Source: Armatimonadia bacterium
GTDB taxonomy: Bacteria; Armatimonadota; Zipacnadia; Zipacnadales; UBA11051
Direction: 5' to 3'
DNA length: 56,460 bases
NCBI GenBank assembly: GCA_039683575.1
Contig: JBDKRC010000331.1
Span: 1-56,460 of the forward strand
Positions within the stretch are counted from its first letter, which is position 1. Every line of letters begins with the position of its first letter. The notes under the pieces were generated by a model. The model was not told the origin of the DNA. It worked only from the letters and a program-made list of their open reading frames with translations, and made no database searches. The position numbers were made by a program, and so were the translations under genes. Below, one piece after another: positions 67-14,207 of this stretch.

Positions 67-714
67 TTGAACCGAGAAGACATCCTCAAAGCCCTCGCCG
101 AGGCCGTCATAGACATGGACGAAGACCGTGCCCGTGAACTCGCCGAGGCCTCGTTGGTCGCGGGTATGGAGGCCTACGACACCATCGCGCATGGCTTGGC
201 AGCGGGCATGGAAGTGGTCAGCGAGAAGTACGACCAGGAGGAGTATTTCGTCCCCGAAATCCTGCTGTGTTCGGATGCGATGTACGCCGCTCTCGAGATC
301 CTGCGGCCTCACCTGAAGGCCGAACAGACTGGCAGTGGGACCGTGGTGATCGGCGTCATCGCCGGCGACATCCACGACATCGGCAAGAACATCGTCAAGA
401 TGATGCTGGAGGGCGCGGGGCTGCAGGTCCACGACCTGGGCCGCGACGTCCCAGTGCAGCGGTTTGTGGACGAGGCCGAGCGCCTGAACGCCAATATCAT
501 CGCGATCTCCACCCTGATGAGCACCACAATGGAGGGCATGCGGCTGGTGGTTGAGGAATTGACCCGGCGCGGCATCCGCGAGAAGTTCAGCGTCATGATC
601 GGCGGCGGCCCGATCTCCCAGGACTTCGCCATGAAGATCGGCGCCGAGGCCTACGGCCGCGACGCTTCAGAAGCCATCCGCGTTGCGCGGCAACTGCTGG
701 AGGCCGCCTCATGA
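67..714 (+). CDS. Corrinoid (B12-binding) protein of a methyltransferase system, MtaC/MtbC-like
   Basis: B12 cap domain (YFVPEILL), DxHxxG motif (GDIHDIGKNIV), STLM and IGGGP motifs; probable TTG start at 67 after GGAGGG (ORF track starts at 40). Confidence 0.9.
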   Translation: MNREDILKALAEAVIDMDEDRARELAEASLVAGMEAYDTIAHGLAAGMEVVSEKYDQEEYFVPEILLCSDAMYAALEILRPHLKAEQTGSGTVVIGVIAGDIHDIGKNIVKMMLEGAGLQVHDLGRDVPVQRFVDEAERLNANIIAISTLMSTTMEGMRLVVEELTRRGIREKFSVMIGGGPISQDFAMKIGAEAYGRDASEAIRVARQLLEAAS

Positions 715-1745
715 ATACCGACACCATGACCCCCAAAGAGCGTTTCATGGCTTTCCTGAGCGGTCAGGAGACGGACAGGTTGCTGTGTGTGCCGCTGATC
801 CTCAACCATGCTGCCCATGCCGCCGGGATGACCGTCTCGCAGGCCCACCGCGATGGAGAGACGCTTGGGAAGGCCCACGCGGCCTCCTATCGCAAGTACG
901 GCCAGGACCTCATCACGATCTTCAGCGACACCTCGCTCATCGCGGAAGCCATGGGAACGAAGCTGTACTATAGCGAGGACGACGCCCCGCGCGTGCAAGA
1001 ACCGGCTGTGGTCGGACCGAATGACGCCGCAGGTATTGTGCCTCCCGATCCGCACCAGGACGGTCGCCTGCCGCACTACCTGGAGGCCATCCGCACGGCC
1101 AACCGCGAGGTCGGAGAGGAAGTCTTCGTTAGCTGCTGCTTCGCACTGCCTGTAACCATAGCAGCGGCGCTGCTCGGTACCGACATTTTCGTGAAGTCCC
1201 TGCGCAAGAACCCCGACCTCGCCCACCGACTGTTGAAGGTCTCGATGCAGGCCGCGCTGGACTTTGCCGATGCCGTCATCGAGGCCGGAGGCATCCCAGT
1301 GCCAGTGGACCCCGTGGCCTCCTGCAGCGTCATAGGGCCGCGGCAGTACGAGGAGTTCGCCGCACCTTACACGAAGCCCATCATTGAGCGCATCGCGCAG
1401 TCCGGCCTACCGCCTGTGTTGCATATCTGTGGCAGCAGCCACCTGATCTGGGGGCAGATGTGCGACACTGGCGCGGCGGTGCTCAGTCTCGACCGGGTGG
1501 ACCTGGCGGAGGCCAGCCGCAGCGTTGGAGAGCGCGTGTGCCTGCTCGGCAATGTGGCTCCGGCGGAGACACTGCTCTACGGCACACCGGAGACGGTGGA
1601 TGAGCAGACACGGATTTGCATCGAGAAGGGCGCGGGCAACCCCAAGGGCTACATTGTCGGCAGCGGGTGCGAGGTGCCGCTCAACACCCCGCCTGAGAAC
1701 ATCCACGCGATGATGAGCGCGGTGCGAAAGTACGGACGGAACTAG
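711..1745 (+). CDS. Uroporphyrinogen decarboxylase-family methyltransferase, MtaA/CmuA-like
   Basis: MTPKERF N-terminus, EAMG, DPVAS, Zn ligands LHICG and GSGCEV; ATGA overlap with the corrinoid gene. Confidence 0.85.
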   Translation: MNTDTMTPKERFMAFLSGQETDRLLCVPLILNHAAHAAGMTVSQAHRDGETLGKAHAASYRKYGQDLITIFSDTSLIAEAMGTKLYYSEDDAPRVQEPAVVGPNDAAGIVPPDPHQDGRLPHYLEAIRTANREVGEEVFVSCCFALPVTIAAALLGTDIFVKSLRKNPDLAHRLLKVSMQAALDFADAVIEAGGIPVPVDPVASCSVIGPRQYEEFAAPYTKPIIERIAQSGLPPVLHICGSSHLIWGQMCDTGAAVLSLDRVDLAEASRSVGERVCLLGNVAPAETLLYGTPETVDEQTRICIEKGAGNPKGYIVGSGCEVPLNTPPENIHAMMSAVRKYGRN

Positions 1746-1751
1746 ATCACC

Positions 1752-2792
1752 ATGACCCACAAACAACGCCTCCTGGCCGCGCTAAGCCGCGAGCCTGTGG
1801 ACCGCCCGCCGGTCATCTGCCCCGGCGGTATGATGTCCGCCGCCGTGGTCGAGGCCATGGAGCGCTGTGGCTACGCGTGGCCGCAAGCCCATGTAGAGGT
1901 CGAGGCCATGGCCGGGCTTGCCCTCGCCATGTACGACCTCGGAGCGCTGGAGAACCTTGCCGTACCCTTCTGCATGACCATCGAGGCGGAGGCGCTGGGG
2001 GCGCAGGTGAACCTCGGTGACCGAATCACGCAGGCGCGCGTGGACCAAGAGCCCTATCAGAGCGCGCTGGAATTGCTGGAGCAGGCCCATCCCCCTATCG
2101 CGGCCTCGCGTCGCGCGCAAGTCGTGCTGGCGGCCCTGGAACGGCTACTCGCGGAGCGGCCTGAGGCGCCGGTGATCGGCAACCTCGTCGGGCCTGTATC
2201 CCTTGCTACCTCTCTGGTGACGCCGGACGTCTTCCTCAAGCAGATGTTCCGCCAGCCAGAAGCGACGCAGGCGGCGCTGGAGCGCCTGACTGACCTGCTG
2301 CTGGCCTTCGGAGCGGAGCAGATCGCGAAGGGCGTCGAGGTCATCGCCATCGCCGACCCGACGGCCACAGGCGAGATTCTCGGCCCGCGCCTGTTCAGGA
2401 CACAAGCAGCGCCGGTGCTGGCGCGTCTGACGCGTGGCCTGCAAACCCTGGGCGCAAGGGTTATTGTGCATATCTGTGGAAATGTCCACACGATAGCCCC
2501 CCTGCTGGCCGAAATCGGAGCCAATGCCATCAGCGTTGATGACATGGTCGGCCTGCGCAAGCTGCGCGGGCAGGTTCCCAACGCCGCAGTGATGGGCAAC
2601 CTGTGCGCTCTACGGCTGCAGGAGGACCCACCAGAGAGCATCGCCAGTTGGGTCCAGCGTATTGGGCTGCGGCAGGCAGACATCATCGCTCCGGCGTGTG
2701 CGATGGTACCGACAACGCCACTGGCGAACCTGCAGGCACTGGTGCGCTCCGCCGCCGTCGTGTCCGATCCACAAGGAGGGGCCGAGCTTTAG
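1752..2792 (+). CDS. Second MtaA/CmuA-family methylcobalamin:acceptor methyltransferase
   Basis: VDRPPVICPGGMM, VPFCMTIEAEALG, ADPTATGEILGP, VHICG and IAPACAM motifs. Confidence 0.85.
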   Translation: MTHKQRLLAALSREPVDRPPVICPGGMMSAAVVEAMERCGYAWPQAHVEVEAMAGLALAMYDLGALENLAVPFCMTIEAEALGAQVNLGDRITQARVDQEPYQSALELLEQAHPPIAASRRAQVVLAALERLLAERPEAPVIGNLVGPVSLATSLVTPDVFLKQMFRQPEATQAALERLTDLLLAFGAEQIAKGVEVIAIADPTATGEILGPRLFRTQAAPVLARLTRGLQTLGARVIVHICGNVHTIAPLLAEIGANAISVDDMVGLRKLRGQVPNAAVMGNLCALRLQEDPPESIASWVQRIGLRQADIIAPACAMVPTTPLANLQALVRSAAVVSDPQGGAEL

Positions 2793-2860
2793 CCGGCCCG
2801 CCGTTATCACCGACCATCCACCACACCGCCACCACGGGCCGGCTGAAGCTCGGCCCCTCC
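2775..2860. repeat. Palindromic repeat doublet (family C, GGAGGGGCCGAGCTT..AGCCGGCCC) overlapping the methyltransferase stop codon
   Basis: Inverted pair at 2775-2799 and 2836-2860; near-identical copy at 47926-47967. Confidence 0.8.
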
Positions 2861-2883
2861 GAAGATTCGAAGAGGCGCTGCCC

Positions 2884-4317
2884 ATGACCAAACAGGAACT
2901 GCTGCGCAATCTGCCCTCGATAGACCGCCTCCTGAGCGACCCGCACGTTGCCTCGCTTGCCGAGGAACACGGCCATGAACTGGTCGTGTGGCTGCTGCGA
3001 CGCGAGTTGGAGGCACTGCGCGCGCGGATTCTGGGGGGCGAGGACGTCACTGATGTCGCAGCGACGGTCCTGCAGGCACTTGAGGCTTCGCTGCGACTTT
3101 CGTTACGCCATGCCGTGAATGCCGCGGGTGTGGTGCTTCACACCGGTCTCGGGCGCGCGATGCTGGCCCCGGCAGCCGTCGAGGCCGTGCATGACAGCAT
3201 TCGCGGATACTGCACTCTCGCCACCGACGCCGAGCAGGGCAAGCGGATGTCCCGCGATCAACACCTGAGGGACGTGCTCTGCGAACTCACCGGGGCTGAG
3301 TCCGGTACTTTCGCCAACAACAACGCCGCGGCGACCATGCTGGTGCTCAATACGCTCGCCCAGGGCAAGGAAGTCATCGTCTCGCGCGGGCAACTCGTCG
3401 AGATCGGCGGCTCCTTCCGCATGCCCGAGGTCATGGAAATGAGCGGGGCCACCATGCGCGAGGTAGGCACCACTAACAAGACGCACCTGAATGACTACGA
3501 GCGGGCCATCAACGAGAACACCGGCGCGCTTTTGCGTGTCCACCAGAGCAACTACCGCATCATGGGCTTCACTTCCGAGCCGGGGATCGAGGAACTGGTG
3601 GCGCTGGGCGACAAGCACGGCCTGCCGGTGATTGATGACCTCGGCAGCGGAGCACTGATTGACCTCAGCCAGTTCGGGCTGGAGCGCGAGCCACTGATCC
3701 AGGAGAGCGTCAGAGCCGGGGCGGCGGTGGCGTGCTTCAGCGGCGACAAGCTCATCGGCGGTCCGCAGTGCGGCATCATGGTCGGCAAGCGCGAGATCAT
3801 CGAGCGCATCAAGAAGAACCCTCTGGCCAGGGCGCTGCGCATCGGCAAAATGACTGTAGCGGCCCTGGAGGCCACACTGAGGCTGTTTCTCGATGAAGAC
3901 CACCTGTGCGAGAAGCACCCGACGTACCGCATGTTCTCGCTCCCGCTGGAGGGCTTGAAGGCACGCGCGGAGGCACTGGCGGCGAAAATGGGGACTGACC
4001 CCATTTTCACGATCAGCCATGAGGACGATGGTTCCCTTGCGCTGAAAATGGGGTCTGTCCCCGTTTTCGCTCTGCGCATCATCGAAAGCGAGACCGAAGT
4101 CGGCAGTGGCTCGGTGCCGACACAGACCCTCCCGACGTGGGCGGTAGCCGTGCAGCCGCAGGGCATGGCACCGGAAGAGCTGGCCCGTCGCCTCCGCTAC
4201 CACGAGCCGCCCATCTTTGCGCGCATCCACAGAGACAGTGTCCTGTTTGACCTGCGAACCATTCAGCCGGAGGAGGACGAACTGGTGGCGGCGGCTCTGC
4301 GGAGTGTACTGCAGTGA
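2884..4317 (+). CDS. selA: L-seryl-tRNA(Sec) selenium transferase
   Basis: LRNLPSID N-terminus, VNAAGVVLHTGLGRA, NNNAAA, SRGQLVEIGGSFRMP, EVGTTNKTH, PLP lysine motif FSGDKLIGGPQCG; start MTKQ at 2884. Confidence 0.97.
   Translation: MTKQELLRNLPSIDRLLSDPHVASLAEEHGHELVVWLLRRELEALRARILGGEDVTDVAATVLQALEASLRLSLRHAVNAAGVVLHTGLGRAMLAPAAVEAVHDSIRGYCTLATDAEQGKRMSRDQHLRDVLCELTGAESGTFANNNAAATMLVLNTLAQGKEVIVSRGQLVEIGGSFRMPEVMEMSGATMREVGTTNKTHLNDYERAINENTGALLRVHQSNYRIMGFTSEPGIEELVALGDKHGLPVIDDLGSGALIDLSQFGLEREPLIQESVRAGAAVACFSGDKLIGGPQCGIMVGKREIIERIKKNPLARALRIGKMTVAALEATLRLFLDEDHLCEKHPTYRMFSLPLEGLKARAEALAAKMGTDPIFTISHEDDGSLALKMGSVPVFALRIIESETEVGSGSVPTQTLPTWAVAVQPQGMAPEELARRLRYHEPPIFARIHRDSVLFDLRTIQPEEDELVAAALRSVLQ
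3984..4068. repeat. In-frame palindromic doublet inside selA (GAAAATGGGG-N5-CCCCRTTTTC, twice)
   Basis: gaaaatgggg actga ccccattttc at 3984-4008 and gaaaatgggg tctgt ccccgttttc at 4044-4068, 60 nt apart; translated as KMGTDPIF and KMGSVPVF. Confidence 0.8.
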
Positions 4318-5882
4318 TTGATCCCGAAAAGCGCCGCCGCGTGATGGAGCGCTCCATTGCCCTCGGCCACTGTATCTGCAACCCCAAGAAGCCCTGCCCG
4401 TGCGATCTGTTCGCCGAGCGGGACCTCTGCCTCTGCGCCGGTGAGCGGCCCGAGGATGCCCCCGAGACCGTCGCGCTGACTTCCCTCGTAAAGAACGCGG
4501 GTTGTGCCTCGAAGATCAACCAGAACGACCTCAAGCGCGCCCTCGGGGACCTGCCGCAGATCAGCCACCCACGGGTGCTGGTGGGCTCGAATACTGGCGA
4601 TGACGCCGGCATCTACCAGCTCAATGATGAACTCGCACTCGTGCAGACCGTGGATGTCTTCACCCCCGGCGTGGACGACCCCTACACCTTCGGCCAGATC
4701 GCAGCGGCCAACTCCCTGAGCGATGTCTACGCCATGGGCGGCCAGCCCCTGACGGCGCTGGCGATCATCGGCTTCCCTATCGAGAACCTCAGCCCGCGGA
4801 TCATGACCCAGATCATGCGGGGGGGACAGGACAAGATGCAGGAGGCGGGCGTGCCCATCGTCGGCGGGCATAGCATCAACGACCTCGACGTGAAGTTTGG
4901 CTTCTCCGTGACGGGGCAGGTCCATCCGCAGCGCATCGTCACCAATGCCACGGCCCAGCCGGGCGATTCGCTGATCCTGACCAAGCCCCTCGGCGTGGGC
5001 ATCATCAGCTTTGCGGCTCAGCTAGACCGCGCTACGGCCCAGGCAATGGATGCTGCGGCCTATTCAATGAAAACCTTAAATAGATTCGCCGCCGAGTTGA
5101 TGATCGAGCACGGCGTGCGCTGTGGCACGGATGTGACCGGCTTCGGGCTGCTGGGACACCTCAGCGAAGTGGCGCGGCAGAGCGGCGTCACGGCCGAGGT
5201 CTGGGCAGATCGGGTACCGATGTTTGACGAGGCACTTCAATACGCCCGTGAGGGCCTGCTCTCAGGGGCCATGGAGCGCAACCGCGAGTATGCGGGGCAG
5301 TTCGTGCAGGTGGCGCCGGGTGTGGCCGAGGAGCGCGTGAACGTGTTGTACGACCCGCAGACCTCAGGCGGGCTGCTGATGGCGGCCCCGCCGGACGTGG
5401 CGGAGGAGATAGTCCGACGCCTGCACGAGGCGGGCCAGACGACGGCAGCGATCATCGGGCGCATTACCGAGCAGTCGGAGGGCAAGATCGTGATCAAGAA
5501 CGAGGGCGAGCAGGAAAGCTGCTGCTGCAGCGCGGCGGCTGAGAGTTGCTGTGAGGATGAGCCAGTCGAGGAGCCCTGCTGTGCCGAGGGGAGCCCCTGC
5601 TGCGCCGGAGGCGGCGGCGAGTCGAGCCTTACCAGCATCCGCGAAGCTTTCGGGGCGTTCATGGGCGAGGTGAACTCGCCGGGGGCGCTGGGGCTGCGGG
5701 AGAAGGAACTCGTCTCGGTGGCGCTGTCGGTGCTGTCGAAGTGCGAGCCCTGCGTGAAGATCCACGTGAAGAAGGCGTGCGAGGCGGGGCTGACGCAGGC
5801 GGAGGTTGACGAGGCGGTGTGGATGGCGATCGCCTTCGGCGGGGCCCCGACTATGATGTTCTACAACGGCATCCGGAAGTAA
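4314..5882 (+). CDS. selD: Selenide, water dikinase (Cys form) with a Cys-rich N-terminal extension, a poly-Cys linker and a C-terminal AhpD/CMD-like domain
   Basis: AGCASK active site, DDAG, QTVDVFTP, FGQIAAANSLSDVYAMGG, LTKPLG, TDVTGFGLLGH, DPQTSGGLL; C-terminal KELVSVALS..KCEPCVKIH is CMD-like. Confidence 0.95.
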   Translation: MIDPEKRRRVMERSIALGHCICNPKKPCPCDLFAERDLCLCAGERPEDAPETVALTSLVKNAGCASKINQNDLKRALGDLPQISHPRVLVGSNTGDDAGIYQLNDELALVQTVDVFTPGVDDPYTFGQIAAANSLSDVYAMGGQPLTALAIIGFPIENLSPRIMTQIMRGGQDKMQEAGVPIVGGHSINDLDVKFGFSVTGQVHPQRIVTNATAQPGDSLILTKPLGVGIISFAAQLDRATAQAMDAAAYSMKTLNRFAAELMIEHGVRCGTDVTGFGLLGHLSEVARQSGVTAEVWADRVPMFDEALQYAREGLLSGAMERNREYAGQFVQVAPGVAEERVNVLYDPQTSGGLLMAAPPDVAEEIVRRLHEAGQTTAAIIGRITEQSEGKIVIKNEGEQESCCCSAAAESCCEDEPVEEPCCAEGSPCCAGGGGESSLTSIREAFGAFMGEVNSPGALGLREKELVSVALSVLSKCEPCVKIHVKKACEAGLTQAEVDEAVWMAIAFGGAPTMMFYNGIRK

Positions 5883-5888
5883 AGTCAT

Positions 5889-6010
5889 CGCGTGGGAGGC
5901 ATGCTCCGCATGCCGGACTCAGTGAGCATGTTCCGGCACACGAGGTGTGCCTACCACGCGGAGAGATGGAAAGAGACGAGTTCCGGCATGCGGAGCATGC
6001 CTACCACGCG
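5889..6010. repeat. Palindromic repeat cluster (family D) between selD and selB
   Basis: cgcgtgggaggcatgctccgcatgccgga ... tccggcatgcggagcatgcctaccacgcg inverted arms with a degenerate internal copy. Confidence 0.7.
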
Positions 6011-6021
6011 AAGAGGAAACA

Positions 6022-7929
6022 ATGCCAGACGAACTCCAACAAATCATCATCGGCACCGCCGGGCACATTGACCACGGCAAGACCGCGCTCGTGAAGGCGC
6101 TGACCGGCGTGGATGCCGATACGCTTGAGGAGGAGAAGCGGCGCGGGATCACCATCGAGCTTGGGTTCGTATTCATGCCTCAGGCTGCCGGGGATGACAG
6201 GCAGATCGTCTTCATAGACGTGCCCGGCCACGAACGGCTGGTCAAGACGATGGTTGCCGGGGCGAGTAACCTTGACGCCGTGATGCTGATCGTCGCGGCT
6301 GATGAGGGCGTTGCGGCACAGACTCGTGAGCATTTTGACATTCTCAAGCTCCTGGGCATGACGCGGGGGCTGGTGGCGCTGACTAAGGTGGACCTCGTGG
6401 ACGAGGCGCGGCGCGAGCAGGTCACGAACGAGGTCAGAGGCTACCTCAGCGGCAGCTTCCTTGCGGACGCGCCTATCACGCCGGTCTCGGCGGTCACCGG
6501 CGAGGGCGTCCAGGAGCTGCGGACGGCGTTGCAGGCGCTGGCGGCGACCGTTGAGCCGCGGACGGACAGCGGCGTGTTCCGCATGCCTGTGGACCGTGTC
6601 TTTACCATGCATGGTTTTGGCACGGTGATCGCCGGGACGGTGCTGGCGGGGTCAGTGCGGGTGGGCGACCAGGTGGAGATACTTCCGGAGGGGTTGCGGA
6701 CACGCGTACGGGGCATACAGGTGCATGGGGCGAAGACAGAGGTGTCGGGGCTGGGAGCGCGGACGGCGCTGAATGTGCCGGATGTGAAGAAGGAGGACCT
6801 GCGGCGGGGCCAGACGGCAGCGGCGCCGGATTCGCTCAAGCCCACGCAGCGCCTCGACGCCCAGCTATACCTGTTGCAAACCGCAGACGAACTCAAGCAC
6901 CGGGCGCGGTTGCGGCTGCACATCGGCACCGACGAAGTCATCGCACGCGTGGCACTGCTCGATCGCGAGCGGCTCCTTCCGGGCGAGACAACCACCGTGC
7001 AGTTCATCCTTGAAGCCTCAACCGTGGCCGTGCCGCGCGATCGCTTCGTGGTGCGTACCTTCTCGCCGCTGCAGACCATTGGCGGCGGGACGATCCTCGA
7101 TGCCCACCCAGAGAAGCACAAGCGGTTCGATGAGGACGCGCTGGAGGGGCTGACCCAGCTTGAGGGCGACCTCGGGCAGGTGATCGCGCAACAGGCTCTG
7201 AAGGCCGGAGCGGTGCCGCAGAAGCTGGCCGACTTCGTTGCCGCTACGGGAGCGGGTGAGCCGGAGGTGGCTGCAGCGGTCGCTCAGCTTGTTGAGGCGG
7301 GGCGACTGGCAGCGGTGCGAGAGGACTATCTCCATGCAGAAGTGCTCGAGGACCTCGCAAGCAAGCTCCACCATGCCTTCGCCGTCTACTACCAGAGAAG
7401 CCCGCAGAAGCTCTGGATGCCGCTGTCGGACCTGCAGGCGCAGGCGGCGAAGCTGATGCCCAAGCCGGTCTGGGAGGCGCTCTTCAGGCAGATGGTGACT
7501 GAGGGGACGCTCGTGCGCAAGGAGCAGCGCGTGCGGCCTGCTGACCGGCAGGTAGAGCTCAAGCCTCAGGAGCAGGAGTGGGCCGAGCGGGTAGCCAGGG
7601 CATACCAGGCTGCGGCATTCTCAACCCCTTCAGAAGAGGAAGTGCGCGCGGAACTGAAAATCCCCGAGGCGGCGTTTGCAGGTGTAATGACCGCGCTGAC
7701 GGAACAAGAGACCCTCATCCGCGTCAGTGACAAAGTCATCTACCATGTCGAGCCGCTGAATCAGCTTCGCGAGAAGGTAGCGGCACTGATTCGCGAGCGA
7801 GGCAGCATGACGGTGGCGGAGTTGCGTGACGAATTGGGTATCTCGCGCAAGTACGCGCTGGCAGTGATGGAGTACTTTGACGCAGTGGGGCTGACGAGGC
7901 GCGAGGGGGACGCGCGGGTGTTGGCGTAG
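6022..7929 (+). CDS. selB: Selenocysteine-specific translation elongation factor
   Basis: [37 protein letters not shown]-domain motifs; C-terminal SECIS-binding winged helix [14 protein letters not shown]. Confidence 0.97.
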
Positions 7930-8035: not shown

Positions 8036-8131
8036 GGAGGAGTCAGGGTTCCGGTGGGCCTCCTGGGCTTCAAACCCAGTGTGGGGCTCGAGAGAGTCCC
8101 GGGTGGGTTCGACTCCCACACTCCTCCGCCA
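8036..8131 (+). tRNA. selC: tRNA-Sec (anticodon UCA)
   Basis: 8-bp acceptor stem GGAGGAGT/ACTCCTCC, anticodon arm CTGGG-CT-TCA-AA-CCCAG (TCA at 8070-8072), long variable arm, T arm GTGGG-TTCGACT-CCCAC, G discriminator then CCA; lies directly after selB. Confidence 0.97.
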
Positions 8132-8864: not shown

Positions 8865-10631
8865 ATGCATCGGAAAGCGTTTGTGCTCGTGCTGCTGGCC
8901 GTCTTGACTGCCTGCCTTGCCTATGCCGCTCCTGCCCCTCCTCCCGCACCTCCCCCTCCCGGATACGGGCCCGGAGGCCCCAAAGGCGCCCTGTCCCCCT
9001 CCGGCATAGCCGGGACTGTCGTGAACGCCGCTGGCCAGCCACTCGCCGGCGTGACGGTCTTCAACAACGGCGATGGCCCAGTGGAGCTCAAGGCCCGAAC
9101 CGATGCGGCCGGGCGGTTCCTGCTCAAAGGCTTCGTTCTGACCCCGGGGGCGTTTGTCTTTGTGGAGCAGCCGTGCTACCACTTCTACGGCGGGTACTTC
9201 AGCCTCGGGACCAAGGACGCGAAGATCGTCCTCACTCCCGCCGATGGGCAGCGTCCGGCCGTGACGTTGCAGCCCCAGCGCGAGGATCTCGAGTATCGCC
9301 GCGAACTGGCGCAGAAGCTTGTGGACAAGGGCATGGCCCTTATCAAGAGCGATCCCAAGGACCCGAACTACCTTCTCCTCGCGTACGCGGCAATACAGCT
9401 CGACCCCACCAAAGCCCCTACACTGACCTCCGACCCGCTCAAGCGGCGCACACTCTTCCTGCTGATTGACCGCCTAAGCGACTTGGCCCCCGAGGAAGTC
9501 ATCCAGTCCACGAGCCAGTACAACCGTTGGACCGCCATGTACTACCTGCTGAAGTGGTCGCGGCGGCCGGAGGTGCGCAAGAACCCTGCGGTCGAGGCGC
9601 AGATGCTGCAGGAGGTCATCACCTTCAGCCGCGATGACGAGCCGAGAGTGTTGCAGGCACTGACTTACCGGACGGAGGCGGCAGGACGCCTGCTCGAACT
9701 TGGCTACCCCGAGGCGCGGCAGGTGCTCGACCGCGACTTGCCGCTCGTATCGAAGCTGCCGTTCAGCCTGGACGACTACGAGACGGCACGGGTGGTGATG
9801 GTCTTCGCCCAGGCGTACTACCTCGTGGACCCGGAGAAGGCACTGGCGCTGGTGAAGGGCCCGGCGAACTCACCGTACAATCTGGAAGACATGACGCGAC
9901 AGAAGCTGGGGGTGCGGCGGGCGCGGAAGGACCCCGATGAGGGGCTGAGGGTGTACCCCAGGCGGAGCGCCAACGAGCCGCAGCAACTCAGCGACATCGC
10001 AATGGCAGCGGCCATCGCCGAGACCGATCCGGCTCGCGCCGAGGCTTTTGCGCGAGAGATCGCGGATGCCCAGGTGAAGGCGCTGGCGTTGGGTGAAGTC
10101 GCGGCCGCCCTGATACCGACCGATCGGGAGCGGGCACGCAAGCTGTTTGGCGAGGCGTACCAGATGATGAGCGCCAAGTCCGCGGGGGAGCAACGCGGGT
10201 ATTTCACGCCCGGGCTGATGCTGGCCTCATTGGCGGTCATGATGCGCGATGCCGATCCCGCGATGGCCTACGAGGCGATGATGCGGGGCCTGTCCCGGCG
10301 GTCGCCGGTGGGCAGGAACCCGAACGACGAGTACATGACTTCCGTTCTGGTGCAGGCCGCGCAGAAGGTGGACGCGCCGACGGCGCGGCGGCTGCTGCGG
10401 CTGCCGGAGGACCCCAGCGCCGACCAGGTCATGGCGCTGACGAGAGACAGTTGGGCCTACCCGGGGCTGGCGGCGGATGTACTGTTGGAGGCAAGCCAGG
10501 CGGCCGGGAACGAGGGCCTCAATGCGAGCGTGTATGGCCAGATGACGATGCAATTGCTGCGGGACGAGGCCTTCCAGTGGACGTACTTCGCGGGCGACTG
10601 GACGCAGTACCTGAGTGATTCGTACGAGTGA
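8865..10631 (+). CDS. Exported protein: Pro-rich linker, carboxypeptidase-regulatory-like domain, alpha-helical solenoid C-terminus
   Basis: GGAGG RBS, signal peptide, PPPAPPPP, IAGTVVNAAGQPLAGVTV..TDAAGRF motif, then Ala/Leu-rich helical repeats. Confidence 0.8.
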   Translation: MHRKAFVLVLLAVLTACLAYAAPAPPPAPPPPGYGPGGPKGALSPSGIAGTVVNAAGQPLAGVTVFNNGDGPVELKARTDAAGRFLLKGFVLTPGAFVFVEQPCYHFYGGYFSLGTKDAKIVLTPADGQRPAVTLQPQREDLEYRRELAQKLVDKGMALIKSDPKDPNYLLLAYAAIQLDPTKAPTLTSDPLKRRTLFLLIDRLSDLAPEEVIQSTSQYNRWTAMYYLLKWSRRPEVRKNPAVEAQMLQEVITFSRDDEPRVLQALTYRTEAAGRLLELGYPEARQVLDRDLPLVSKLPFSLDDYETARVVMVFAQAYYLVDPEKALALVKGPANSPYNLEDMTRQKLGVRRARKDPDEGLRVYPRRSANEPQQLSDIAMAAAIAETDPARAEAFAREIADAQVKALALGEVAAALIPTDRERARKLFGEAYQMMSAKSAGEQRGYFTPGLMLASLAVMMRDADPAMAYEAMMRGLSRRSPVGRNPNDEYMTSVLVQAAQKVDAPTARRLLRLPEDPSADQVMALTRDSWAYPGLAADVLLEASQAAGNEGLNASVYGQMTMQLLRDEAFQWTYFAGDWTQYLSDSYE

Positions 10632-10670
10632 TGAGGCGGGGGCTGAGACGGCCGAGACGATGACAAACGC

Positions 10671-10754
10671 TGTCATCCTGAGCGGCGGACGTCCACGTCC
10701 GCAAGCGAAGAGTCTCCGCCACCGCGGGGATGCTTCACTTCGTTCAGCATGACA
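10671..10754. repeat. TGTCATCCTGAGCG...CAGCATGACA palindromic element (family E)
   Basis: Same terminal motifs as copies at 46919-46998 and 47055-47139; degenerate copy at 8683-8731. Confidence 0.8.
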
Positions 10755-10786
10755 GACTTTGGGCTCATTCAATCGGGGGTCACACA

Positions 10787-12133
10787 ATGCGCAAGTACAT
10801 CTGGCTGGCTGTACTGACGGTCTCGGCGGCGCAGGCTGCCGGGTTGCGGTTTGTGGACCAGTGGGAGCGCGATGGGCTCCCGGTGGTGCCCACAAATATC
10901 CTGAACCTCTATGCACAACCGCCGGAGAAGTTCGCATCGCTCCCGCCGGACGCCCCGGCCCAGCGGTACACCCTCTGCTGGCCCATCGGCGCGGGGCAGG
11001 CGGCCGCTGCCCCTGACAAGGACCGCTGGATGAGCTTCATGATGGACGCGGACCCCGCGCATCGGGAGTTCCTGTGGGTTGACACCAATCGCAACTGGGT
11101 CTTCGAGCCGGGCGAGAAGTACGCGCTGGGCGACCTGAAGTGGGGCGACAAGACCATTCGCGGCTTCGAGACCCCAATCGACATCGGCGGTGAGCCGGCG
11201 ACGCGCACGCTGCGGGTGTGGCTCGGGACGTTCCCCGGTACGCTGCTCGTGTCGCTCAGGGGCTACTGCGCCGGGACCGTGGAGCTAGGCGGCAGAGAGG
11301 TCGCAGCGTTGCTGGCCGATGCCGACATGGACGGCCGCTTCGCTACCCTCGGCCGGGACCTGATCTTCCTCGACCTGGACGGCAACGGCAAGTACTTCAT
11401 CGCCACCGAGCGCTACCCGCTGGCCGAGAAGCTGCGGCTGGACGGCAAGACGTACGCAATGCAGTACTCACCCAATGGTGCCAGCGTCGCCGCAACTGAG
11501 ACGTATCTCGGGCAGGGGACGGTGCGCTTTGCGCTCAAGGGTGCGGGCAACAAGCCAGTGATGGCGACGTTGCGGCGTGATGACGGTGAGGTGGTGGCGG
11601 CGGGCAAGCTGGGCGAGCCGGTGACGGTGCGTGAGGGTACATGGACCATGTTCACGCTTGCGAACCTGCGGATGCAGGAGGGCGCGCGGACGTGGTCTTA
11701 CAGCTTCAGCCGCCACTCCGGTGAGTTATCGAACCTCTCGCCGTTGGTAGTCAAGCCGGGGCAGGAGACCACGTTTGACCTGCTCGGGCCGATCAAGCTG
11801 ACCATGAACGGAGTGCAGGCCACAGCGAAGCCGGGGGATCAGGTGAATGCTCAGGTGGGCTTCACGAGCGCGACGGGAATGGACGTGCGGTCGCAAAGCA
11901 GCGGACCGAGCACGCGCGACTCCGATGAGCCGAAACTAGAACTGAAGCTACTGGACGGCAAGTTTGCAGTTAGGGCGCAGGGCCGCATGGGCTTTGGGTG
12001 AGGCGGCGGGTGCAGTGGCTCCCTGGCGTTGCCAGCGGACTTGAAGCCGGGCAAGTACCATGTAGTCGCACTGATACCGACGGGCCCCCTCGCGGGGACA
12101 CTGCGGGCGGAGACGGCGGTGGAGGTGAAGTAG
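10787..12133 (+). CDS. Exported 448-aa predicted selenoprotein with a C-terminal U-G-G-G-C motif
   Basis: Signal peptide MRKYIWLAVLTVSAAQA; DxDxDG-like Ca-binding motifs; in-frame TGA at 11999-12001 followed by 43 codons (GGGCSGSLALPADLKPGKYHVVALIPTGPLAGTLRAETAVEVK), TAG at 12131-12133, then a terminator. Confidence 0.85.
12020..12039 (+). promoter_or_regulatory. Candidate bacterial SECIS hairpin for the TGA at 11999-12001
   Basis: TCC-CTGGC-GTT-GCCAG-c-GGA; the apical loop begins with GU, 27 nt after the TGA. Confidence 0.7.
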
Positions 12134-12154
12134 AAGCAGGGGGATCGCGAATCC

Positions 12155-12190
12155 AAGAGGGGCCGCGCTTCAAGCGTCGGCCCCTCTTTT
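12155..12190 (+). terminator. Rho-independent terminator
   Basis: AAGAGGGGCCG..CGGCCCCTCTT followed by T run, 21 nt after the readthrough TAG. Confidence 0.8.
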
Positions 12191-12203
12191 GTCGTCTACC
12201 ATT

Positions 12204-14207
12204 CTACGGCAGGAAGTTGTACATCCTCATGTGGAGGAAGTTGCCTAACACACCCCAGATCGCCCCGGCGCTGAACTCCCCCAGGATCAGGCCCATGAAG
12301 AACATCGAGGCCGGGCGGAAGGCGCCCATGCCCCCGTAGCGCAATATCAGGACCTTCAGCAGCCAACTCATCAAGATCGAGGGCGCAAACAGCGCCATCG
12401 AGAAGCTCCCCGATACCGCAAATCCCGCCGGGTGCAGCGGCCACCAGGTGAAATTGGTCCGCAGCGCCGCCAACGCCACTGTCACCCCGAGACCCACGAA
12501 TACAGCGATAGTCGCATGCCAATTGGTCGTCGGCGGACTCTCGATCCACGACTGCAGCCGCGAGAAGGCCTCCTGGCCCTTGTAGGCCCAGCCCTCGCCC
12601 CCCTGGCGGAAGAACGCATCCAGCAGTATCCCCCACCCGCAGATCAGCCCCAGGGCGGTGGCGAGCGTCAGAGCAACCGCCAGCCCGCTCTGAGCCGTAT
12701 TGGTAAGGCTCGCCAACTTCATACCCTCGATCTGGTTAGGCATCGGGTGACTGCGGTGAGCGCGGTTAATGGACCAGAAGAACGAGAACATGATGAGGTT
12801 GTTGACCCCAAGACGGCGGGGTCCGGCCATCTCAGTCAGCACGGCTTCGGGACCGATCTTGTGCAGGTCATGCACCGGCGAGCCAAGCTCGGCGCGGATG
12901 CGGGCGACGGCGATTGAGATGCCCAGATAGAGCAACAGGAAGGCCAGCGCGAGCCACAGGCTCATGCCCGCGTGCAGGCAGAAGGCGACCAGCAGCCCCA
13001 ACCCCACCAGCAGCGCCCAGACAGTGAAACGGTACGAGAAGGCCTCGCGGCTGTCGTCCTCGGTGCGCTTGCCCATGGCGGCTTCGAGCGCGGCGACGAG
13101 ATGGTGGCGGCTGGAGTATAGCGAGAAGAACGCCAGCGCCAGGTAGGCGCCAAAGGACTGCTCGTCAATCCAGGGGGCGCGCGGGATGCGCCCCCAGCCG
13201 GCCGCCGCTACTGCCACGCGCACGATTTTCCAGAAGATGTAGAAGAACCACGAACTGAAGGCGAGGTCGGTGGGGATGAAGAACGCGAGACCCACGCCGA
13301 AGGGGAAGATGTTCAGCGGCGTCCAGCCGATGGAGCGCCAGGGCATGGTTTTGATGATCTGGCCGAGGTCATAGGCGGCGCTGCGCTCGCCCATGAGGTT
13401 GGGGACGCGCGGGTAGAGCAGATGCAGGCCGTTGACCGCGTCGATGAAGAAGGCTATCCCGAAGCCGATCCACATGAGCCTGCTGCTCCACAGCGGGGTC
13501 TCCGGGCGGGTCATCTCGAGCGGAAGTTGCACGATCGGGAAGCTGAGCTTGGCCTCCTCGGTCCACTGCTTCCGGAAGAGGTTGTTCAGCGCCAGCATCA
13601 CGAAGATCAGGGTGAACGAGAACCCCGACCACCAGGCAGCCGGCACCATCCATTGCCGCCAGTAGGGGGTGGCGAACAGGGGCTGGTTGCTCTCGAAGTA
13701 GGCCCACAGCGCGCGTTCATCGGTGACGGTCAGCCACGGCGGAATCTTCTGGAGGAATAGCTGCTCCCAATGGTTCTCAGGCGTGGCGTGCCAGAACGGG
13801 TGTGCCACGACCGGTATCATGGTCTGCAGCTGATCGAGGCCGCACACGGCGCTGGAGATGGCGAGCATGGCGTAGATGACCAGCAACTCGCCCTGGCGCA
13901 ACGCCCACCGCGGGGAAATGCGGCGCAGGAGGGCATTGAGCCCACAGACCAAGAGCAGCGTGACGATGACATTGAAATAGAGTGAAACGGTGGTAGGGCG
14001 GCTCTGGCCCCAGATGTAGCCCCAGAGGATGAACCAGGCATTGGGCGGGATGAGCAGCAGGCCGATGACGACCGCGCGGACGGTCACCGGAGCGGGAGCG
14101 GGAGTCGGGGAGGGTGAGGCTGCAGTGGATTGTGGTGTGGAGTGGGCGGCGATGGCCGGAGGCTCCTTTGCCTGAGTGAGCGGCATGCGGTTCGCCACCG
14201 GACACAC
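12204..14207 (-). CDS. Polytopic membrane protein, DUF6785/DUF6784-like (putative peptide transporter)
   Basis: Many hydrophobic segments; ELLVIYAML, KQWTEEAKLSFPIVQLPLEM, WWPLHPAGF and LILRYGG..FFMGLILGE motifs; GTG start after AGGAGG. Confidence 0.75.
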   Translation of the reverse strand: MCPVANRMPLTQAKEPPAIAAHSTPQSTAASPSPTPAPAPVTVRAVVIGLLLIPPNAWFILWGYIWGQSRPTTVSLYFNVIVTLLLVCGLNALLRRISPRWALRQGELLVIYAMLAISSAVCGLDQLQTMIPVVAHPFWHATPENHWEQLFLQKIPPWLTVTDERALWAYFESNQPLFATPYWRQWMVPAAWWSGFSFTLIFVMLALNNLFRKQWTEEAKLSFPIVQLPLEMTRPETPLWSSRLMWIGFGIAFFIDAVNGLHLLYPRVPNLMGERSAAYDLGQIIKTMPWRSIGWTPLNIFPFGVGLAFFIPTDLAFSSWFFYIFWKIVRVAVAAAGWGRIPRAPWIDEQSFGAYLALAFFSLYSSRHHLVAALEAAMGKRTEDDSREAFSYRFTVWALLVGLGLLVAFCLHAGMSLWLALAFLLLYLGISIAVARIRAELGSPVHDLHKIGPEAVLTEMAGPRRLGVNNLIMFSFFWSINRAHRSHPMPNQIEGMKLASLTNTAQSGLAVALTLATALGLICGWGILLDAFFRQGGEGWAYKGQEAFSRLQSWIESPPTTNWHATIAVFVGLGVTVALAALRTNFTWWPLHPAGFAVSGSFSMALFAPSILMSWLLKVLILRYGGMGAFRPASMFFMGLILGEFSAGAIWGVLGNFLHMRMYNFLP

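Follow-up and report, generated by a model that had tools for sequence, protein, structure and literature searches.

A TGA codon within an exported beta-sandwich protein of an Armatimonadia bacterium very probably encodes selenocysteine

Does the TGA triplet at positions 11999-12001 of contig JBDKRC010000331.1 end a gene, or does it encode selenocysteine (Sec)? The window that we analyzed comprises 56,460 nucleotides (nt), positions 1 to 56,460 of this contig, from the Armatimonadia bacterium assembly GCA_039683575.1, read on the forward strand. An open reading frame at 10787-11998 is closed by this TGA after the residues ...RMGFG, and the same frame continues past the TGA through 43 sense codons (GGGCSGSLALPADLKPGKYHVVALIPTGPLAGTLRAETAVEVK) up to a TAG at 12131-12133. 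The initial annotation of the window, made from the DNA letters, read the TGA as a hidden Sec codon followed by a translated tail, with the Sec residue carried on the immunoglobulin-like (Ig-like) beta-sandwich of an exported protein. Our comparisons with homologues and our structural models strongly support that core reading. Judged by sequence comparison, the TGA is very probably a Sec codon, and it is highly likely that positions 10787-12133 of the forward strand form one gene for a 448-residue exported selenoprotein, in which UGA-405 would be decoded as Sec via SelB and the tail would finish the last domain.

The coordinates given for the TGA, for the 43-codon continuation to the TAG, and for U405 and C409 all hold. 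The extended product consists of 404 residues, the proposed Sec at residue 405 (U405) within the motif GFG-U-GGGC, and the 43 residues of the tail (12002-12130, forward strand), which include Cys409, encoded by TGC at 12011-12013. By codon position (1/2/3), the extension has G+C fractions of 0.70/0.57/0.83, which match those of the upstream open reading frame (0.64/0.49/0.84). Frame +2 across the tail stretch is likewise open. Given that this DNA is 64% G+C and that frame +2 is open as well, an open stretch of 43 codons is weak evidence when taken alone. The hairpin that follows the TGA in the window, together with the open frame, is not above chance by itself, so the significance of both comes from the comparison with homologues. 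A terminator-like hairpin at 12156-12187, followed by UUUUGU (whole feature 12156-12192, forward strand), lies downstream of the TAG and not of the TGA, as had been noted initially. It was found by folding: the 67-nt stretch folds at -35 kcal/mol with a z-score of -4.3, and none of 200 shuffled sequences folded as well. A simple terminator pattern scan of positions 10500-12400 listed nothing. TGA still serves as an ordinary stop codon here, since it closes three of nine neighbouring genes in the window (selA, a gene for a 588-residue protein, and an FG-GAP gene) and also terminates 8 of 28 members of the selenoprotein family.

A six-frame search of 61 related genomes returned 11 other matches, of which eight contain exactly one in-frame TGA and three contain none. 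All eight TGA-bearing relatives, whose proteins are 25-30% identical to that of the window, have the TGA at [FY]G-U-G, and behind it runs a conserved tail about 44 residues long. Of the matches that lack a TGA, two (L010 and L012) have Cys at the U position, and the third (L020) stops short of the C-terminal domain. The family loci that we retrieved include 28 distinct Sec forms, and the motif [FY]-[GA]-U-G surrounds the TGA in every case that was translated. We aligned 20 sequences (alignment A1), 11 of them Cys forms and nine Sec forms. Just two columns of this alignment, D191 and U/C405, are invariant, and all 11 of its full-length homologues that lack a TGA have Cys at the column of U405. 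The initial annotation had proposed that the DNA downstream of homologues called with truncated ends be inspected; we found a TGA at the same column and a conserved tail. The tail is 32.1% identical on average to the corresponding part of the window protein, compared with 22.9% for the upstream part, and the window's own tail retains the residues typical of the family, namely the P after the hairpin codons, PG.Y, GPLAG, and V.V.K. Thus, conservation of the 43-codon extension, on which the Sec reading had been made to depend, is observed.

The same pattern extends to protein databases and to the rest of the phylum. Searching 1.84 billion representatives exhaustively with phmmer yielded 318 matches at E <= 0.001. 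Among the matches listed (151 besides the query), 128 stop at [FY]x, a single residue ahead of the U position; a further 11 run to full length and have Cys there, and 12 are fragments or other forms. The three closest database entries (97%, 91%, and 39% identity) have all been called as ending one residue before Sec, and the 97% and 91% homologues are called with the same end as the window protein, ...MGFG. We also searched 301 sampled genomes from the phylum with a profile built on the C-terminal domain. This gave 71 matches, spread over 44 genomes; 68 of the matches contain an in-frame TGA, and the three that lack it are in G006, G037, and G063. On these sequence comparisons, the family is large and would lie mostly or wholly within Armatimonadota, and the critical position is read as Sec in about 9/10 of the members and as Cys in the rest. 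The window genome (G000) has three members, which are the window gene and two in tandem on another contig. These tandem Sec paralogues (L057, G000:C343, minus strand, 1938..1111 and 1051..221) have canonical family hairpins; one, of the short type, has two membrane helices and reads FSYG-U-GGSC at the motif, and the other has a signal peptide and reads LGFG-U-GGSC.

In bacterial Sec decoding, SelB-GTP loaded with Sec-tRNA(Sec) binds an mRNA hairpin located shortly after the UGA, the Sec insertion sequence (SECIS). The homologues carry such hairpins of 6-8 base pairs (bp), with loops of 3-5 nt that usually contain GU or GG. The stems come in 27 distinct versions, and 24 of the 37 distinct sequences have a loop that begins 21-22 nt past the UGA. 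When 14 of the homologues are aligned without gaps, a 6-bp hairpin is seen to begin 17 nt after the UGA; 91.7% of its cells are paired, and five of the six pairs have changed on both sides. The covariation score is 0.476, compared with 0.164 for shuffled alignments (0 of 500 reach the observed score) and 0.016-0.152 for controls slid along the alignment. One arm of the stem falls on the codon that precedes a conserved Ser and the other on the codon two positions past that Ser, so the two encoded amino acids change together, as in the pairs His/Val, Gly/Val or Ala, Cys/Ala or Thr, Gln/Leu, and Tyr/Val or Ile. A covariance model built from the 14 homologue hairpins (R1) finds the U sites of 15 members outside its training set with E-values of 2e-11 to 2e-5 (31-55 bits), among them the sites of both G000 paralogues (52.3 and 41.8 bits). 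At two Cys forms, R1 gave no match.

The genes that Sec insertion would require lie 2.7-8 kb upstream of the selenoprotein gene in the same window, all on the forward strand. These are selA, for L-seryl-tRNA(Sec) selenium transferase (2662-4317; PF03841, E = 1.6e-142; start codon uncertain); selD, of the Cys type and fused to an AhpD/CMD domain (4314-5882; Pfam and NCBIfam); selB, for the Sec-specific elongation factor (5947-7929; 373 bits against a cut-off of 242); and a tRNA-Sec with anticodon UCA (8036-8131), which three programs find, among them ARAGORN and Rfam at 73.7 bits (gathering score 47). Whole-window Rfam searches at gathering thresholds returned this tRNA-Sec and no curated SECIS family. 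The 2.7 kb between the tRNA-Sec and the selenoprotein gene hold one unrelated gene, that for the 588-residue protein. Across the sampled genomes, selB scores above its curated cut-off in 154 of 301 overall and in 40 of the 41 that have the TGA form. The sole exception is G220, which is 93% complete and in 450 contigs. At E <= 1e-30, selB was found neither in G006, which has the Cys form and is 96% complete, nor in G037. Formate dehydrogenase alpha is usually the commonest bacterial selenoprotein; a search for it (TIGR01553) found none in G000, which is 96% complete.

The tail also has a place in the predicted fold. AlphaFold2, supplied with the 20-sequence alignment, gave an all-beta model with a mean pLDDT (predicted local distance difference test) of 85.0 and a predicted template modeling score (pTM) of 0.69. 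In this model, strands follow U405 at residues 409-414, 422-431, and 438-447; from residue 411 onward, successive 10-residue blocks have mean pLDDT values of 95, 96, 94, and 96, and the block that holds the Sec loop (401-410) has a value of 68. The C-terminal domain (residues about 330-448; 11774-12130, forward strand) modeled by itself (122 residues, 35-sequence alignment) reached a pLDDT of 90.3 and has seven strands, with Sec between strands 5 and 6. According to the model, a product cut at the TGA would be without three of the seven strands of its last domain, namely the three formed by the tail. The initial annotation had allowed that the domain might fold completely when cut at the TGA; the model speaks against this. 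The best structural match of the domain is an MG domain of Salmonella alpha-2-macroglobulin (4u48_A; Z 10.1, root-mean-square deviation 2.5 A, 97 of 122 residues aligned, 19% identity), and a second macroglobulin match is MG2 of human alpha-2-macroglobulin (2p9r_B; Z 9.1). For comparison, models that have no clear match usually reach a best Z of 7-8, and the match at rank 50 here still has a Z of 7.5. Pfam gave consistent hints, all of them below threshold for the window protein: MG2 (PF01835) at 14.7 bits, with a cut-off of 32.8, and GEVED at 15.3 bits. Among the 20 members, MG2 was matched in five at E <= 0.01 (best E 3e-5), and GEVED was also matched weakly. A profile search of PDB sequences returned nothing below E 0.07. 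Foldseek matches to the full-length model were to generic multi-Ig proteins with template modeling scores below 0.25, and we set them aside as uninformative.

The rest of the protein is likewise built of beta structure. It begins with a hydrophobic leader, MRKYIWLAVLTVSAAQA (10787-10837, forward strand), which we read from its sequence as a predicted secretory (Sec-type) signal peptide that is likely cut after AQA; the leader is similar in all 11 homologues inspected. Conserved Asp/Gly loop residues in alignment A1 (D99, D178, D191, D196, G201, and E208) and weak matches to EF-hand_5 (two of 20 members, best E 0.0015) are the basis on which calcium binding by the N-terminal Asp-rich loops is only suggested. 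The N-terminal beta domain (about 250 residues, 10787-11540) occurs in about 90 other open frames across the phylum, which are 260-1250 residues long (mostly 400-600). Those frames lack the TGA, and their C-terminal parts differ, as judged by the extent of the matches.

The mechanism that we propose is as follows. SelB-GTP carrying Sec-tRNA(Sec) would bind the hairpin downstream of UGA-405 and insert Sec, with selB and the tRNA-Sec supplied from 2.7-6 kb upstream, and translation would then run 43 codons further to complete the last beta-sandwich domain. The N-terminal signal peptide would direct the protein across the membrane and out of the cytoplasm. The exported protein would consist of an N-terminal beta domain with Asp-rich loops that resemble calcium-binding ones, a middle Ig-like domain, and the C-terminal MG2-like domain, in which a Gly-rich loop between two strands would display Sec405, with Cys409 four residues on.

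Several observations weigh against this reading. The hairpin claimed for the window is present as described, at 12020-12039 of the forward strand (UCC-CUGGC-GUU-GCCAG-(C)-GGA, with TCC at 12020-22, CTGGC at 12023-27, the loop GTT at 12028-30, GCCAG at 12031-35, a bulged C at 12036, and GGA at 12037-39). What does not stand is its typicality, since it is an atypical and displaced version of the family element. Its loop begins at the 27th base after the TGA, whereas the family norm is about 21 nt. Where the family has SVRVP, this gene encodes SLALP, and its hairpin is found about 6 nt farther downstream; this is the weakest link of the case. R1 scores the site at 15 bits (E 0.17), and noise matches in the same window reach 13 bits. 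Nor is the hairpin more stable than shuffled sequences (z +1.05 for an 81-nt fold and -0.15 for a 36-nt fold); in the 81-nt fold, it occurs in the centroid structure only and is absent from the minimum free energy (MFE) structure. The MFE z-scores of the family's hairpin regions are themselves modest, with a mean of -0.9 and 12 of 37 below -1.5. As a test of the hairpin, such scores proved weak in this G+C-rich DNA, so we relied on covariation instead. Furthermore, the sampled genomes are kin, so the co-occurrence with selB overstates the number of independent cases. A single-protein search of metagenome contigs gave 57 pattern matches, none of them confirmed, and no DNA of the 97% and 91% relatives. 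The placement of Sec at residue 405 is itself drawn wholly from sequence comparison. As for what the protein does, the fold of the C-terminal domain is a common one, and its structural matches are generic beta-sandwiches that indicate likeness of fold only and are silent on function. The Cys that might partner the Sec is also inconstant: among 33 Sec-form domains, it stands at +4 after Sec in 24 and at +5 or +6 in three, and it is missing in six; the Cys forms L010 and L012 have C-x5-C. With this Cys so variable, the U-C selenenyl-sulfide proposed initially cannot be a universal mechanism and is accessory at most, and the selenol alone is the constant feature.

The condition of the window hairpin lends itself to a reading in which the family is decoded as Sec while the window copy is weakly decoded or decaying, its SECIS having drifted from SVRVP to SLALP, with most ribosomes stopping there and leaving a truncated 404-residue protein whose last domain is incomplete. 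The low R1 score, set against 31-55 bits at the 15 other members, and a stability that does not exceed that of shuffles are what one would expect under such decay. Nevertheless, the tail of the window protein keeps its family residues and is better conserved than any other part, its third-position G+C is intact at 0.83, and the TGA itself has been kept, as the ...MGFG ends of the 97% and 91% homologues indicate. The gene also offers an alternative hairpin of 5+3 bp, whose GUU loop starts 27 nt after the UGA, and short stems closed by a GUU loop are found as well in the printed sequences and MFE folds of L038 and L056. We therefore regard decay of the window copy as unlikely.

More drastic readings fare worse. 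If the TGA were a plain stop, the protein would end at ...RMGFG and the downstream frame would be due to chance or would be the relic of a nonsense mutation. Gene callers do end the protein at the TGA, and open frames are common in DNA of 64% G+C, as the open frame +2 illustrates. This reading is, however, already contradicted by the comparative sequence data, in which the TGA recurs at one and the same column in 68 of the 71 domain matches from 44 genomes, Cys takes its place in other homologues, and the downstream hairpin covaries; moreover, the tail is conserved and is needed for the modeled fold, and the terminator-like hairpin comes after the TAG. We consider a plain stop very improbable. 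It is less probable still that the TGA is read as a standard amino acid, whether through a reassigned code (NCBI 4 or 25) or through SECIS-independent, near-cognate read-through. Any read-through yields the same frame, and sequence alone is silent on the inserted residue, but TGA ends selA, the gene for the 588-residue protein, the FG-GAP gene, and 8 of 28 family members, which argues against reassignment. In addition, a tRNA-Sec (UCA) and selA, selB, and selD are present, the alternative residue in homologues is always Cys, and the TGA form occurs with selB in 40 of 41 genomes. Decoding of UGA-405 as Sec thus remains the reading that we prefer.

If U405 is Sec, what would the exposed selenol do? 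Our best guess is that it would be the working group of an extracytoplasmic redox site or of a site for chalcogen or metal exchange. Selenium handling outside the cell is the most specific functional candidate, if a decidedly tentative one, because on gene order alone the members of the family lie repeatedly beside selA-selD-selB. A family member lies within 10 kb of selB on the same contig in 11 of 41 genomes, and we inspected gene order at nine of these loci besides the window. At seven of them (G004, G035, G240, G244, G265, G049, and G218; L050-L055 and L058), one to three members lie directly upstream of selA-selD-selB on the same strand, with three in a row in G049. At the five loci for which N termini are available, the member farthest upstream is a short form of 250-300 residues in which two membrane helices are predicted and the Sec motif is [FY]G-U-GG[ST]C.YSG. 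The order in G090 is selD, a family member, two URO-D genes, selA, and selB, and G311 resembles the window in that its member lies downstream of selB. A search for tRNA-Sec within 1.5 kb of 28 other members found none.

The member in G311 (L056, G311:C87, 6894..3592, minus strand) has a frame of 1100 residues in which the Sec domain is internal (PG-U-GGGC) and is followed by about 250 residues. By eye, its N-terminal part resembles a domain of the carboxypeptidase-regulatory type, as in the window's 588-residue protein, whose gene lies upstream of the selenoprotein gene. We also considered the genes for the 588-residue, DUF6785, metal-resistance-like, and FG-GAP proteins of the window as conserved partners of the family and rejected them, since tblastn searches found none of these proteins within 1.5 kb of other members.

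A further possibility, in which we place limited confidence, is that the Sec-bearing MG2-like domain is a dedicated module for extracytoplasmic selenium handling that evolved together with the Sec pathway. Soluble exported forms might capture or reduce environmental selenium on the selenol, for example as an Se-Se or Se-S adduct, and thereby feed uptake and SelD, and the short forms with membrane helices directly upstream of selA-selD-selB might be part of the same module. If this is true, then the selenoprotein would belong to the cell's own selenium supply line, and the presence of a UGA in its leading gene would also render expression of the sel operon sensitive to the availability of Sec.

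The family appears to be undescribed as a selenoprotein. No Pfam family scores above its cut-off for the window protein, and NCBIfam release 20.0 has no family at E <= 0.01 for the window protein and no relevant one at E <= 0.1 for the 20 members. Table 1 of a May 2026 review (PMC13188914) lists 119 prokaryotic selenoprotein families and subfamilies, and none of the entries in that table could be matched to the present family by name, domain accession, or motif. Term searches of the articles on deep-Sep (PMC12013277) and BSepDB (PMC13326102) turned up no mention of Armatimonadota, although supplementary tables or the BSepDB site may still hold an entry. Literature that pairs selenoprotein or selenocysteine with names from Armatimonadota, as far as the searchable text goes, matched only planctomycete genomes, hydrogenases, and HdrA. 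Like the computationally predicted bacterial families tabulated in PMC13188914, which include Sec/Cys pairs and UxxC or CxxU motifs, the present one has an in-frame UGA with a downstream hairpin, homologues with Cys, and the full Sec machinery, and evidence of this sort also served to define the tabulated families. Unlike the families in that table, it has an MG2-like beta-sandwich instead of a thioredoxin-like fold, it presents its Sec in a Gly-rich loop with the motif [FY][GA]-U-G-x-x-C (U-x3-C), and it is exported. Sec forms also greatly outnumber Cys forms here, by 128 to 11 among the database matches listed and by 68 TGA forms to three in the phylum sample.

How does the family compare with known systems that it resembles in part? 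Most characterised selenoproteins have a thioredoxin-like fold. Secreted proteins can contain DUF1573, a small domain with a beta-sandwich fold. A DUF1573 (PF07610) selenoprotein with a UGC motif is listed in Table 1 of the same review (PMC13188914). It resembles the present family in having Sec followed by Gly and a nearby Cys, and differs from it in that the motif here is U-G-x-x-C and not U-G-C. We rejected an identity with DUF1573, since PF07610 matched neither the window protein (E <= 1) nor any of the 20 members (E <= 0.01). YedE and YedF are encoded by selenium-metabolism genes that cluster with selD and other sel genes. They resemble the present family in being membrane-bound or extracytoplasmic, in including some selenoproteins (YeeE/YedE is a family in Table 1 of PMC13188914), and in lying beside Sec or selenophosphate genes, and they have no relation to it in sequence or fold. 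Macroglobulin (MG) domains, which occur in bacterial and human alpha-2-macroglobulin and in complement C3/C5, supply the best structural matches of the C-terminal domain model; they are not known to have a catalytic Cys or Sec in the corresponding loop. Thiol chemistry on an Ig fold does have a functional precedent in the N-terminal domain of DsbD, a periplasmic Ig-fold domain with a redox-active Cys-x5-Cys, which is the spacing also found in L010 and L012. This domain was not among the best 50 structural matches, absence from which is no exclusion, and gave no Pfam match. The family is unusual in that it is exported, has an MG2-like beta-sandwich, and uses Sec predominantly over Cys, and it would be decoded in the known way.

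Automatic annotation misses this family: 128 of the 151 relatives among the matches listed are cut before Sec, which costs them almost half a domain. A domain profile combined with a SECIS model would mend hundreds of gene calls. The family may also be a main reason why many Armatimonadota retain the Sec machinery, and its recurrent place beside selA-selD-selB, which suggests a role in acquiring or sensing extracellular selenium, is in our view the most interesting lead.

The surroundings of the gene have further features. Convergent to the selenoprotein gene, a gene for a DUF6785/DUF6784 membrane protein occupies 12204-14207 on the minus strand; a 30%-identical relative adjoins the paralogues on G000:C343 (L057, about 4768-5997), which may be chance. 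Directly upstream of selA are tandem genes of the URO-D family (711-1745 and 1752-2792), and a URO-D pair also lies between the family member and selA in G090 (L059, 3699-5784). The window SelD is of the Cys type (..NAGCASK..); its N-terminal stretch and its linker are rich in Cys, and its C-terminal AhpD/CMD domain bears a CEPC motif. In tblastn searches, this selD-AhpD/CMD fusion aligns almost end to end, as far as residue 520 or so, with six other sel loci in the phylum.

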